Shown here in pieces: positions 58,525 through 60,255 of a DNA stretch of 64,000 bases. The DNA is from Rickettsiales bacterium (lineage in GTDB: Bacteria; Pseudomonadota; Alphaproteobacteria; Rickettsiales; JABIRX01), in assembly GCA_034111325.1 (NCBI GenBank), contig JAWUXM010000016.1:29214-93213 (forward strand). Reading direction: 5' to 3'. Position 1 is the first letter of the stretch. Every line of letters starts with the position of its first letter. The position numbers were made by a program, and so were the translations under genes. The notes under the pieces were generated by a model, which was not told where the DNA came from, searched no databases, and saw only the letters and a list, made by a program, of their open reading frames with translations.

Positions 58525-60255
58525 ATGAAGAACATAGCGCCAATAGCTTTATCAACTACGTCTCACAATAGCACCTCAATAACAGAACAAAGTCCATATT
58601 ATGGACTAGGTCAACTTCTAGCAAAAACACCAGGTTTTAGAGGACCTATCTCCTTATTGCAAAGACTATCCACCGCTATTGCTGGCGCCACAGGCAATAA
58701 TCAACATTCTAACGAGGCGGCTGGGCAAATTAATAAAACCTCCGAGAAGGTTACACTCCTAGATCAAGTAGATATAAAAGAGTTTCAGGTTAATATTAAT
58801 GTTAATAGCACCCAAGCAGCACCGTCAACAGCTACCTTAAGTGATGGTGGGTTTGTTGTTTCTTGGGAAGACCAAAAATCACTTAACCCTAGGAAAAGTG
58901 AAATTATTGCCCAAATATATAATGTCAACGGCACTAAACTAGGAGGTGAATTTCGAGTTGATGAGCCCATTACTGACCATCAGGGACAGGTGCCATTTAA
59001 GCCTCAAATTATACCTCTGGAAAACAACCAGTTTTTTATTAAATGGCAACATGGAGATCTCTCTTACACTAAAAGATATAGTGGCAATGGTACTCAACAA
59101 GGAGCAGTAGTTCATAGCGCCCTCATTTATGATTCAATCACCTACCATCAGAATGGTAGCTTCACTGAAATTTCTGGCGCTAATGCCCAGCAATATTATG
59201 CTAGTGGTCAGAAAGACGGAGAGAGCATAACGATTCAGAGCTCCGAAAAAAACATTGCCTTACAAAACGGTGAATTTATTAGTTATTGGGTCGAATCAAG
59301 AGAAAATAGTGGTCTTGGTGCTATACGAGCACAAATATATAGGGCTGATGGTGATAAAAAAGCAGAGTCATTCCTAGTTAGCACAACTAATGATAATACT
59401 TATCACTCCTCTCCATCAGCTACAGCCTTACAAAATGGTGGTTTTACCATTGTTTGGAAAGATACACCGCCAAGTCGGAGTAGCGATAAAATCATTGGCA
59501 AAACATATGATGCTAAGGGTGTTCAGCAAGGAAAAAGGTTTCAGGTTAGTAGTAGCCATCTTTACAACTACTCTCCTTTAGTTACCTCATTAAATAAAAA
59601 ATTTATGATCAGTTGGTTAGGGAGAAGAGAAGAGGCTGTTCCAAATTATGACATCCTTAGCCAAATATATGATTCCAATGGTGTTCGACAAGGAAACCCA
59701 TTCCATGTCAATACTGAAACTCATATCAGCTTCCCTAACGGTGCATCAACCAGACTGCTAAAAGATGGTGGATTTTTTATCACTTGGCAAGGCAGAGAAG
59801 ACAATAGTACTTATCTTGGAATATTTGGACAAAGATTTGATATTAACGGCACAAAAATAGCAATAGATAAGCCTTCAATAACAGTACCTCAACCTCAACC
59901 AGAACCTCGGCCAGAACCAGAGCCTCGTCCAGATCCAGAACCAGAACCTCGTCCAAATCCAGAACCAGAGTCAGAACCAGAAACGCAGTTACCTATGTTA
60001 GGTATAGCTGCAGGTGCTTTTGCGACACTATGTTTGTGCCTAGCTGGAAAACGCCGTAATGCAAACCCTGCTGCACCAATAGAAGCTGCACACCCCGCTC
60101 CAAATGTTATAGCAGTATATGACGAGGCGAATGCAGAACCAATGGAAAGAAAAGAAGCTGCACCCCCTAATCCAAATGCATCCCCTAATCCAAAATGGAC
60201 AGAAAGAAATGCATATCATTCGAAGGACGCACCTAATAATAGCATTCAAATTTAA
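58525..60255 (+). CDS. Six-repeat beta-propeller-like protein with Pro/Glu linker, single TM helix and cytoplasmic tail
   Basis: Six copies of the pattern L.(D/N)GGF.(V/I).W......I.(A/G)Q.Y...G...G..F.V span aa 100-445. These are followed by PQPQPEPRPEPEPRPDPEPEPRPNPEPESEPE, the TM helix LPMLGIAAGAFATLCLCLAG-KRRN, and a 70-aa Pro/Asn/Ala-rich tail. No N-terminal signal peptide is visible. Confidence 0.65.
   Translation: MKNIAPIALSTTSHNSTSITEQSPYYGLGQLLAKTPGFRGPISLLQRLSTAIAGATGNNQHSNEAAGQINKTSEKVTLLDQVDIKEFQVNINVNSTQAAPSTATLSDGGFVVSWEDQKSLNPRKSEIIAQIYNVNGTKLGGEFRVDEPITDHQGQVPFKPQIIPLENNQFFIKWQHGDLSYTKRYSGNGTQQGAVVHSALIYDSITYHQNGSFTEISGANAQQYYASGQKDGESITIQSSEKNIALQNGEFISYWVESRENSGLGAIRAQIYRADGDKKAESFLVSTTNDNTYHSSPSATALQNGGFTIVWKDTPPSRSSDKIIGKTYDAKGVQQGKRFQVSSSHLYNYSPLVTSLNKKFMISWLGRREEAVPNYDILSQIYDSNGVRQGNPFHVNTETHISFPNGASTRLLKDGGFFITWQGREDNSTYLGIFGQRFDINGTKIAIDKPSITVPQPQPEPRPEPEPRPDPEPEPRPNPEPESEPETQLPMLGIAAGAFATLCLCLAGKRRNANPAAPIEAAHPAPNVIAVYDEANAEPMERKEAAPPNPNASPNPKWTERNAYHSKDAPNNSIQI
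59887..59982. repeat. Degenerate short tandem repeat (ccagaacc[t/a]c/g..) encoding the (P-E/P-R) linker
   Basis: ccagaacctcggccagaaccagagcctcgtccagatccagaaccagaacctcgtccaaatccagaaccagagtcagaaccagaa. Confidence 0.8.

Follow-up and report, generated by a model that had tools for sequence, protein, structure and literature searches.

The ORF at 58525-60255 on the forward strand of the window (the whole 64-kb stretch of DNA analysed) is complete and encodes a protein of 576 amino acids plus a stop codon, in an intact frame. It is a real gene, and an identical 576-aa protein is called on the JGI metagenome contig Ga0455689_062714 of sample 3300041951. The features of the locus and of the encoded protein are presented in Table 1. 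The ATG is the first start codon downstream of an in-frame stop, which is located 14 codons upstream; the interval contains no ATG, GTG or TTG. The distance from the 3' end of tRNA-Ser(GGA) to the ORF is 115 bp. An upstream start is impossible because of this tRNA and the in-frame stop, and the missed start which an earlier note on this DNA had left open was thus discarded when alternative starts were checked. The codon usage of the gene is among the most typical of the window (RSCU distance 0.084), its GC content is 0.406 (window: 0.383 +/- 0.025), and the gene is intact and native-looking. Paralogues were absent from the window and the flanking contig (tblastn; blade HMM on six-frame ORFs).

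Table 1. Positions of the features at the locus and of the regions of the encoded protein (window numbering)
Feature	Position	Strand	Details
tRNA-Ser, anticodon GGA	58322..58409	+	ARAGORN; Rfam tRNA model 57.5 bits
Shine-Dalgarno GAGGG and ATG	58516..58527	+	GAGGG 58516-58520, ATG 58525-58527
N-terminal leader	58525..58776	+	aa 1-84; polar, Ser/Thr-rich, predicted disordered
Seven-bladed beta-propeller domain (predicted)	58777..59862	+	aa 85-446; blade HMM, family consensus, AlphaFold2, Foldseek
Propeller unit 1	58777-58944	+	blade HMM match aa 85-140
Propeller unit 2	58945-59103	+	blade HMM match aa 142-193
Propeller unit 3, degenerate	59104-59220	+	aa 194-232; blade HMM match aa 205-232
Propeller unit 4	59221-59364	+	blade HMM match aa 238-278
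Propeller unit 5	59365-59532	+	blade HMM match aa 283-336
Propeller unit 6	59533-59694	+	blade HMM match aa 339-390
Propeller unit 7	59695-59862	+	blade HMM match aa 393-444
Pro-Glu/Pro-Arg stalk	59887..59982	+	aa 455-486, 32 aa; PQPQPEPRPEPEPRPDPEPEPRPNPEPESEPE; TRF
Single predicted TM helix	59989..60048	+	aa 489-508; LPMLGIAAGAFATLCLCLAG
KRRN stop-transfer and Pro/Asn/Ala-rich tail	60049..60252	+	KRRN aa 509-512, tail aa 513-576
Neighbouring orphan ORF	60372..60932	+	186 aa; basic, Lys/Pro/Thr-rich

The propeller gene and the 186-aa ORF are the two genes found between tRNA-Ser and ppa, and a promoter-like site (60309-60337) precedes the 186-aa ORF. This neighbour is matched by neither Pfam nor NCBIfam and forms a one-member cluster at 90% identity; it is an orphan, as had been claimed. 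Two duplications upstream of the tRNA indicate a past rearrangement at the locus: 22 nt of its 5' end recur exactly at 58112-58133, and 40 nt of its promoter-like region are duplicated at 57928-57967. The 3' end of the tRNA does not recur anywhere in the window, even with up to 3 mismatches allowed, and the window contains no integrase or transposase; an Rfam scan of 57000-61200 returned nothing beyond the tRNA. A scan for ppa across 185,579 species representatives gave 80 loci of 61-70% identity, none of which (0/80) shares the order of LolCD, tRNA-Ser and ppa; the window organism is not itself one of these representatives. The window also encodes two ankyrin-repeat proteins (46824-48212 and 48220-52464). 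The nearest named relatives of its AlaRS and PPase belong to MAGs designated 'Rickettsiales bacterium', at only 57-68% identity. Based on the ankyrin repeats and this loose taxonomy, the organism is probably host-associated.

Concerning the propeller domain, a single-blade HMM, built from 1,224 blades of other family members only, scores 194 bits on the window protein and matches seven contiguous units. For six of them the i-E-values lie between 6e-7 and 6e-21; the match to unit 3 is weak (i-E-value 0.008, 2.5 bits). Measured against the family consensus, blades 2, 3, 4 and 6 are degenerate; the Trp of strand B is present in 6/7 blades, and the EF.V and G.Q.Y/F..G motifs are kept. AlphaFold2 predicts aa 85-446 as a confident all-beta region (pLDDT about 85-95) with seven strand groups, and a closed seven-bladed beta-propeller is predicted. 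The EFQVN strand (aa 86-90), which has no preceding blade, presumably closes blade 7 by velcro closure. The earlier note had described a propeller-like repeat protein with six blades spanning aa 100-445. Its repeat pattern is real and far above chance, given the blade HMM score and a domain E-value of 1.7e-54 to unrelated proteins, and the AlphaFold check that it proposed returned a predicted propeller; the blade number and the span were corrected, as the degenerate third unit (aa 194-232) had been overlooked and the seven units occupy aa 85-446.

In a Foldseek search of the PDB, also proposed in that note, seven-bladed propellers are among the top matches (E 1e-9 to 2e-10). The best structural matches to the model are the BP39L/CV39L lectins (6gxs), Dfer_1899 (5hx0), the FoRham1 lyase (7esk) and GH145 (5mvh), all with only 10-11% sequence identity to the window propeller. 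The TM-scores normalised to the target are 0.55-0.67 for the CV39L lectin 6gxs and FoRham1 7esk; the 6gxs chains are found at ranks 3 and 6, with 0.64-0.67. Judged by the model, these structures resemble the window propeller at fold level only, and no binding or catalytic residues in common with them were recognised. The BP39L/CV39L lectins share its seven-bladed fold, and neither sequence homology to them nor their conserved sugar-binding residues are found in it. In a viral structure library the best matches were phage structural proteins and giant-virus propellers.

The repeated unit of the family is about 50 aa long (EFxVN..Q..P.VA...DGGFVVxW.S..QDGS..GIFGQRYDxxG) and typically occurs seven times per propeller; the family consensus also holds seven units. 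An exhaustive search returned 18,486 clusters (50% identity representatives) at E<=1e-3 and 1,463 at E<=1e-30, with giant multi-propeller proteins ranking first. Homology over the whole domain extends to hundreds of proteins, with the best E-value (1.7e-54) for P0002 and 24-32% identity; across the family members the E-values range from 1e-54 to 1e-25 and the identity from 24 to 35%. Most matches cover 78-81% of the query, and the alignments of homologues begin only at about aa 82-86; in BLASTP, the match to P0164 has an E-value of 9e-52 over aa 73-447. No relative above about 35% identity was found in 5.8 billion proteins. Pfam and NCBIfam gave nothing significant on the propeller, only low-complexity matches on the stalk and, in the homologues, sub-threshold CopC-type noise. 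A search of all PDB sequences with the family profile was likewise not significant (best E-value 0.39). No papers with motif strings such as FGQRYD and GGFVVTW were found by full-text searching of the literature, and no description of the EFxVN/DGGFVVxW/GIFGQRYD family was found in the literature on DUF4347, RTX adhesins and beta-propeller surveys. Judged by sequence homology, the window domain is not an orphan; it is a member of a huge family which has no Pfam or NCBIfam model.

Looking at the domains which accompany the propeller, RTX repeats are found in 26/119 non-self homologues, T9SS sorting domains in 8/119 and SLH domains in 5/119, in each case among the matches listed. Cadherin, Calx-beta, dockerin and LTD domains are also present in family members, and in P0049 the propeller is inserted between the N and C domains of a flagellin. 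The contexts of the family (RTX/T1SS, T9SS, SLH, cadherin-like and flagellin insert) are all exported. The association of the pattern ..GGFVVTW..GIFGQRFD..G.. with RTX-like proteins, made in the earlier note, was borne out by the RTX-containing homologues and by the giant proteins at the top of the search. Contrary to what had been suggested, the family is not specifically alphaproteobacterial: the named matches span Gammaproteobacteria, Planctomycetes, Bacteroidota/Calditrichia with T9SS tails, Chlamydiae and others. Compared with the family, the window protein has diverged QDGS loops and four degenerate blades, and contains neither RTX repeats and a T1SS signal nor a T9SS tail, an SLH domain or a signal peptide. 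Its C-terminal stalk, TM helix and tail replace the usual export or anchoring devices, which are usual companions of the family domain and not a defining feature of it.

The leader (aa 1-84) has a pLDDT of 35-50, with a low-confidence helix at 42-53, and no homologue was found in database searches, either for the leader or for the C-terminal 120 aa. The absence of an N-terminal signal peptide, already noticed before, is confirmed: there is no h-region, the best 10-residue hydropathy within the first 45 aa being 1.18, and there is neither a Cys lipobox nor an RR motif. The 32-aa stalk is indeed encoded by a degenerate tandem repeat, for which TRF gives periods of 6, 12, 18 and 24 nt. AlphaFold2, run on the C-terminal fragment, predicts the stalk as extended and without secondary structure (pLDDT about 80). 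Its sole Pfam match is Trypan_PARP, which falls exactly on the stalk segment and is sub-threshold (42 bits against a cut-off of 100).

The single TM helix with its KRRN stop-transfer, as first proposed, agrees with hydropathy and with one model of the C-terminal fragment. The sole hydrophobic segment (aa 489-507) has a mean Kyte-Doolittle value of 2.06 over 19 aa, and AlphaFold2 on the C-terminal fragment alone (single-sequence) predicts a helix at 493-507 with low confidence (pLDDT 56-66); the helix is absent from the alignment-based model. The segment is Gly/Ala-rich and moderately hydrophobic; the flank on its N side is acidic (net charge -4) and that on its C side basic (+2). The flank charge is a rule of thumb for orientation and not a dedicated topology predictor. 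The Pro/Asn-rich tail described in the earlier note is present as well; 68 aa follow the TM helix, the pLDDT of the tail is below 60, and its DNA contains a degenerate internal duplication (60058-60106 vs 60130-60178) and 18-nt units (60159-60194).

Two known spacers resemble the stalk. The TonB spacer and the EP repeats of procyclin (PARP) are also extended, alternate Pro-Glu with Pro-Arg(Lys) and lie beside a membrane anchor. The similarity is compositional only: TonB differs in its N-terminal anchor and in its C-terminal domain, and procyclin is GPI-anchored and eukaryotic.

A TM-anchored layout with a single or double propeller is found in five other proteins among about 390 examined. P0164, P0170 and P0276 are paralogues from an uncultured bacterium of 32-34% GC (JGI 3300041080), and P0018 and P0045 are paralogues from the Chlamydiae MAG K940chlam9 (NGX62239.1); Chlamydiae are an obligately intracellular phylum. 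In P0276 (595 aa) the leader is charged, the seven blades are followed by a stalk rich in T and P, and the TM helix is followed by KKSK and a tail rich in Pro. The five analogues have their parts in the order of the window protein: the N-terminal extension lacks a signal peptide and leads into one or two seven-blade propellers, after which come a stalk rich in Pro and Thr, a TM helix rich in Gly and Ala, a cluster of basic residues and a tail of low complexity. The analogous proteins checked are net acidic before the TM helix and basic after it; the contig of P0018 ends just past the helix. Their identity to the window protein is 33% over the propeller, whereas their leaders and tails are unrelated to it in sequence and their stalks are T/P, not P-E/P-R; they also belong to sets of paralogues, whereas the gene is single-copy in the window. 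A double-glycine leader at the N-terminus of P0164 (...KIGG|Q) was considered and rejected, as the GG is not kept in the paralogues. Since the layout recurs in other lineages, it is not an artefact of the gene model, and selection on the architecture is supported by the fact that two other lineages have kept the stalk, TM helix and basic tail independently, in five proteins.

For the window protein, we consider the chances about even that it is an intact single-pass membrane protein with a propeller head on a stalk, oriented N-out and exported by a non-Sec route. The propeller would serve as a putative ligand-binding head, adhesin- or lectin-like; as the QDGS blade loops are diverged here, its ligand is probably unlike that of typical members. 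The Pro-rich spacer may hold the head about 10 nm off the membrane, assuming an extended polyproline-II conformation, and it would be expected to be rigid if it behaves like the TonB EP/KP rod and the EP repeats of trypanosome procyclin. The orientation would be type-I-like, with the propeller non-cytoplasmic and the tail cytoplasmic, as suggested solely by the flank charge and the family context. It is established that Sec cannot translocate a 488-residue N-terminal domain which precedes a C-terminal anchor, and a dedicated export independent of a signal peptide would therefore be required. We favour an effector-like or surface-display protein which would face the host from the bacterial surface or from within a host or vacuolar membrane, because the organism has ankyrin-repeat proteins and looks host-associated.

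Concerning the export route, the window contains no secretion-system genes which would explain it, the only such gene being that of a T2SS/T4P-type ATPase; T2SS substrates need a signal peptide. T4SS and T3SS genes are absent from the window and 6 kb of flank. RTX nonapeptide repeats (PF00353) were searched for with no match at E<=1, and known C-terminal sorting signals, including those of the exosortase and rhombosortase type, are also absent. A substrate of the RTX/T1SS type was rejected on that PF00353 result and on the C-terminus, which consists of the TM helix and the Pro/Asn-rich tail. A sorting signal resembling PEP-CTERM (PEP...TM...KRR) was rejected too: the protein lacks a signal peptide, its TM helix is followed by 68 residues, and no NCBIfam sorting-domain model matches at E<=1.

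The opposite topology is the strongest alternative, and we regard it as possible, if rather unlikely: the protein would be tail-anchored (N-in/C-out), with the propeller either in the bacterial cytoplasm or injected by a T4SS or T3SS into the host cytosol, where the helix would enter an organelle membrane. Transmembrane effectors which insert into host organelle membranes exist in Rickettsia, Legionella and Chlamydia. Such T4SS/T3SS effectors share with the window protein the lack of a signal peptide, a single, moderately hydrophobic TM helix near the C-terminus and a host-associated, ankyrin-encoding setting, and the presence of the architecture in the obligately intracellular Chlamydiae points the same way. 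A Gly/Ala-rich, moderately hydrophobic helix of this kind reportedly suits secreted membrane effectors (Krampen et al. 2018). [quoted passage not shown] The membrane effectors of the Rickettsia T4SS are nearly all single-span and 87% of them are predicted N-in/C-out, opposite to the orientation that we propose (PMC12981334). However, the flank charges predict N-out/C-in, consistently in three lineages, all other contexts of the propeller family are extracellular, rods rich in Pro or Thr typically serve as spacers outside the cell, and a translocated tail of 68 aa is long for tail-anchor insertion. The remaining readings are less probable still. That the protein is a decaying, functionless remnant of a larger RTX-type or other exported surface protein, whose export device was lost and whose termini are chance read-through, seems very unlikely to us. 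Four degenerate blades (unit 3 in particular), termini without homologues, the lack of any relative above about 35% identity and the signs of rearrangement at the tRNA locus are compatible with decay; the unbroken 576-codon frame, the good Shine-Dalgarno, the typical codon usage, the modelling of all seven blades with high confidence and the stalk-TM-basic-tail design which two other lineages retain independently, in five proteins, are not what it predicts.

That the protein is anchored and exported conventionally by Sec, its true start and signal peptide having been overlooked, is hardly credible; this reading is backed solely by the general expectation for surface proteins. It is contradicted by the tRNA upstream and by the in-frame stop, which is separated from the ATG by no other start codon, by the lack of an internal Met in aa 2-100 and of a hydrophobic stretch like that of a signal peptide, and by the N-termini of the analogous proteins, which lack signal peptides and are kept among their paralogues; if the assembly at 58410-58525 is correct, this reading is already refuted. 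On the origin of the locus, the propeller gene and the orphan may have been acquired horizontally as an islet beside tRNA-Ser, which would be compatible with any functional reading; we consider this improbable. The propeller gene adjoins the tRNA, neither gene between tRNA and ppa has close homologues, and the duplicated 5' end and promoter-like region mark the locus as rearranged. Yet the duplicates lie upstream of the tRNA and do not flank the two genes, the window contains neither a direct repeat of the 3' end of the tRNA nor an integrase or transposase, and GC and codon usage cannot be told apart from those of the rest of it. The 'accessory islet' of the earlier note is thus left without positive support, given the typical codon usage and the lack of an att repeat and an integrase.

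Returning to the reading of an exported, N-out protein, the window protein, the three JGI paralogues and the two Chlamydiae paralogues may form a distinct host-directed class. Its members would be type-I-like proteins without signal peptide, built from a surface-type propeller head, a stalk, a TM helix and a basic tail. They would leave the cell independently of Sec, being injected and then inserted into a host or vacuolar membrane, or being displayed through a mechanism not yet described, and their layout would mimic that of eukaryotic single-pass receptors; we propose this class tentatively and with low confidence. The propeller module is among the larger bacterial extracellular domain families which are not modelled by Pfam or NCBIfam (about 18,000 clusters), and a compact member with a single propeller would offer a convenient entry to work on structure and ligands. 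If the protein is just another uncharacterised adhesin, the finding is an ordinary one. The puzzle lies in an extracellular-type head combined with a C-terminal anchor and no signal peptide, in at least three lineages, one of which is obligately intracellular and another of which encodes ankyrin repeats; the way in which such a protein is exported could point to an effector class or to an export signal so far unrecognised.

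The ORF described in the earlier note is recovered on the + strand with the same start and stop, and its ATG is preceded by GAGGG. Concerning the N-terminal region, the absence of a signal peptide is borne out: the maximum 10-residue hydropathy in aa 1-45 is 1.18, and there is no lipobox Cys or twin-arginine motif at the N-terminus and no internal Met within aa 2-100. The alternative upstream start that was to be checked does not exist. A stop codon lies in frame 14 codons 5' of the ORF start with no ATG, GTG or TTG between, and tRNA-Ser(GGA) ends further upstream; upstream extension is therefore impossible, and the missing signal peptide reflects the gene itself, not how it was called.

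The window protein was aligned with 78 homologues (79 sequences), and the alignment consensus contains seven copies of G.EF.VNTYT...Q..P.VA....G.FVV.W.S..QDGS..GIFGQRYDA.G. A single-blade HMM trained on 1,224 blades taken from other members of the family, and applied unfiltered to the window protein, finds seven contiguous units (aa 85-140, 142-193, 205-232, 238-278, 283-336, 339-390 and 393-444). Six of them are significant (i-E-values 6e-7 to 6e-21). Only the third scores weakly (0.008), yet it occupies the sole gap between units. AlphaFold2, based on the same alignment, places the beta-strands in seven groups with pLDDT ~85-95 over aa 85-445. The six blades counted previously are thus seven, the degenerate unit at aa 194-232 having been overlooked. 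No blade stands in front of the first EFQVN strand (aa 86-90). In every other unit the EF.VN strand comes after the three strands of the blade before it, so the first one presumably closes blade 7 (velcro closure). Foldseek matches of the model in the PDB are exclusively beta-propellers, led by the uncharacterised protein Dfer_1899 (5hx0), the CV39L lectin with seven blades (6gxs), FoRham1, a rhamnose-glucuronate lyase that also has seven blades (7esk/7esn), and GH145 enzymes; sialidases come next. Target-normalised TM-scores are 0.55-0.67, with 10-11% identity. Among viral models, propellers of giant viruses and structural proteins of cyanophages or phages rank highest. The PDB matches fix the predicted fold as the beta-propeller proposed before; it is compatible with a binding head but does not give a specific activity.

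The repeat region has no Pfam or NCBIfam model in the window protein and eight homologues tested, the family profile has no significant match among all PDB sequences (best E-value 0.39), and a full-text literature search gave no paper containing the repeat motif strings. Precomputed annotations on family members (CopC PF04234, GH43 PF04616, Phage_T4_Y10B PF26862) are faint and look spurious. A word-indexed search gives 327 matches at E<=1e-3 (identity 23-34%), mostly spanning ~78-81% of the query (aa 1-454, 454 aa), a span corresponding to the propeller region. An exhaustive HMMER scan of 1.84 billion representatives gives 18,486 proteins at E<=1e-3, of which 10,001 reach E<=1e-10 and 1,463 reach E<=1e-30, counts whose weakest tail may be inflated by the Pro-rich stalk; the best 150 matches all fall within aa 82-469, and the top ranks are mainly giant proteins (2,000-8,000 aa) in which as many as 29 stretches match. 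The nearest relatives of the window protein are at most ~35% identical, apart from an identical protein from the same metagenome contig; by sequence, it is a divergent member of the family.

Concerning the partner domains, RTX repeats are found in 26 of the 119 non-self matches listed in the word-indexed search, a T9SS sorting domain in 8 and SLH domains in 5; cadherin-like, Calx-beta, FG-GAP/VCBS, fn3 and DUF4347 domains are further partners in these matches, and dockerin and LTD domains also occur in the family. In the metagenome protein P0049 (ENA, 679 aa) the propeller is a central insert between intact Flagellin_N and Flagellin_C domains, a surface-exposed position in flagellins; another family member, P0096, appears similar. 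All contexts are exported or cell-surface, so the association with RTX-like surface proteins was right, whereas its alphaproteobacterial specificity does not hold.

C-terminal to the propeller, we confirm the 32-aa stalk PQPQPEPRPEPEPRPDPEPEPRPNPEPESEPE (aa 455-486), the single hydrophobic segment (aa 489-507, mean Kyte-Doolittle 2.06), and the KRRN after it with a Pro/Asn/Ala-rich tail of 64 aa. The stalk DNA is a degenerate tandem repeat (periods 6, 12, 18 and 24 nt), and the tail contains a degenerate duplication (repeats D3 and D5). The sole Pfam match of the stalk is Trypan_PARP, under the cut-off; by analogy, the stalk resembles the spacers of TonB and procyclin. AlphaFold2 modelling of aa 440-576 alone gives a helix at 493-507 with low confidence.

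In crude hydropathy screens over ~390 family members, very few have, besides a propeller, a C-terminal TM helix with a tail beyond it. Three are paralogues from one bacterium (JGI metagenome 3300041080, 32-34% GC): P0164, with two propellers, P0170, and P0276, with one seven-blade propeller. Their N-termini share a highly charged leader of ~35 aa (MELK..I.EE.N.QKE...VY.K) which is not a signal peptide and whose conservation suggests a functional N-terminal signal; towards the C-terminus come a stalk rich in Thr and Pro, a TM helix rich in Gly and Ala, the cluster YKKSKW and finally ~80-110 aa of Pro-rich tail. Two of the genes are in tandem, beside that of a 777-aa protein with an RTX-like-looking C-terminus. 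The Chlamydiae MAG K940chlam9 has two paralogues (P0018 and P0045), which share a conserved N-terminal domain of ~90 aa without signal peptide, the propeller and the TM helix; in P0045 a PT-rich stalk is seen, and a QKQKNNKK cluster follows the helix. The recurrence of the layout in these proteins marks it as a selected design rather than an accident of gene modelling. This C-terminally anchored architecture without signal peptide is a rare variant, found in three lineages. In the window protein the net charge is -4 over the 15 residues preceding the TM helix and +2 over the 15 following it (-1 to -2 and +3 to +5, respectively, in the other proteins checked); from this acidic-to-basic change we infer, by the positive-inside rule, a type-I-like orientation, the propeller lying outside and the tail inside.

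The coordinates of the features are collected in the table. The window (GC 38%) belongs to a 102-kb metagenome contig (JGI 3300041951) and contains ordinary alphaproteobacterial housekeeping genes (e.g. lolCD, ppa, sdhE, mfd, alaS, hisF, trpE, ccmF, dsbBD). The closest match of AlaRS is 61% identical and the best named ones are 'Rickettsiales bacterium' MAGs (57-59%); the pyrophosphatase matches (61-70%) give the same picture. Two ankyrin-repeat proteins, encoded 6-12 kb upstream of the propeller gene, suggest that the organism is associated with a eukaryote. The shorter one joins Ank repeats to the peptidoglycan-binding SPOR domain, an odd combination. The 233-aa protein directly 3' of lolD has a clear signal peptide (…LANHANA/EE) and no Pfam or NCBIfam match, and may be a small outer-membrane protein. 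The orphan ORF 3' of the propeller gene comes with a promoter-like site of its own, matches no family and forms a cluster of one member. DUF692, DUF2063 and DoxX are arranged as is typical for an operon of peptide modification or metal-related function. A single gene in the window is related to secretion, that of a GspE/PilB-type ATPase, and there is no paralogue of the propeller gene in the window or flank.

Coordinates of the features in the window and of the paralogue genes on contigs L082 and L083 (JGI 3300041080)
Feature	Position	Strand	Length	Remarks
GspE/PilB-type ATPase	922-2814
DUF692/DUF2063/DoxX cluster	25876-27973	+		MbnB/TglH/ChrH-type (DUF692) RiPP-modification enzyme, DUF2063, DoxX
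Ankyrin-repeat protein	46824-48212	+	462 aa	multiple Ank repeats, C-terminal SPOR
Ankyrin-repeat protein	48220-52464	-	1,414 aa	Ank repeats only ~aa 470-560
ORF adjoining ankyrin genes	52537-53868	-	443 aa	no Pfam match
Protein 3' of lolD	56973-57674	+	233 aa
Gene-free gap	57675-58321		650 bp
Copy of 40-nt block	57928-57967			93% identical
Copy of tRNA 5' end	58112-58133		22 nt	exact
Hairpin and T-run	~58150-58176
TATAAT-containing block	58241-58280		40 nt	5' of tRNA
tRNA 5' end	58318-58339		22 nt
tRNA-Ser(GGA)	ends 58409			115 bp upstream of propeller ORF
GAGGG	58516-58520
Propeller ORF	58525-60255	+	576 aa
Stalk DNA	59887-59982
Promoter-like site of orphan	60309-60337			TTGCGA-17-TATAAT, upstream TG
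Orphan ORF	60372-60932	+	186 aa	very basic, Lys/Pro/Thr-rich
P0276 gene	L083 4006-5793		595 aa
P0170 gene	L083 6047-9337		1,096 aa
P0164 gene	L082 569-3553		994 aa

The accessory islet at tRNA-Ser suggested in the earlier note finds no support at the locus: GC (0.406 vs a window mean of 0.383 +/- 0.025) is typical, the RSCU distance from the window (0.084) is among the smallest of 45 genes, the tRNA 3' end has no second copy in the window with up to 3 mismatches allowed, and no integrase is present. Recent acquisition of the gene as an islet is possible but unsupported. Copies of the tRNA 5' end and of the block 5' of the tRNA both lie within the gene-free gap, in which ARAGORN and Rfam make no call, and the hairpin and T-run come after the former. 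These copies look like a truncated pseudo-tRNA-Ser or a rearrangement relic; there is evidence of past rearrangement at the locus, on the far side of the tRNA from the propeller gene.

As a proposal from sequence and model, the propeller would be a ligand-binding head ~10 nm from the membrane (32 residues of ~0.3 nm each, assuming an extended polyproline-II conformation). Sec is not known to translocate a 488-residue N-terminal domain ahead of a C-terminal anchor, so export would have to follow a signal-peptide-independent route. In view of the ankyrin proteins and of the analogues in Chlamydiae, the most economical idea is that a dedicated secretion system would deliver the protein, as an effector-like or surface protein. 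The main rival is a tail-anchored protein with a cytosolic propeller, which matches published statistics on Rickettsia T4SS membrane effectors: these are single-span, 87% are predicted N-in/C-out, and a protein counts as tail-anchored if its TMS lies in the last 65-70 aa (PMC12981334). Both the charge bias of the flanks and the extracellular context of the family oppose it. A decaying remnant is unlikely because the frame is intact, codon usage is native, the fold is confident and the architecture is convergent in other lineages.

The window protein may be one more adhesin. Its topology poses a neat puzzle, and it offers practical access to an uncharacterised domain family. This family comprises over 18,000 clusters at 50% identity, lacks a Pfam or NCBIfam model and is a candidate new curated domain family.
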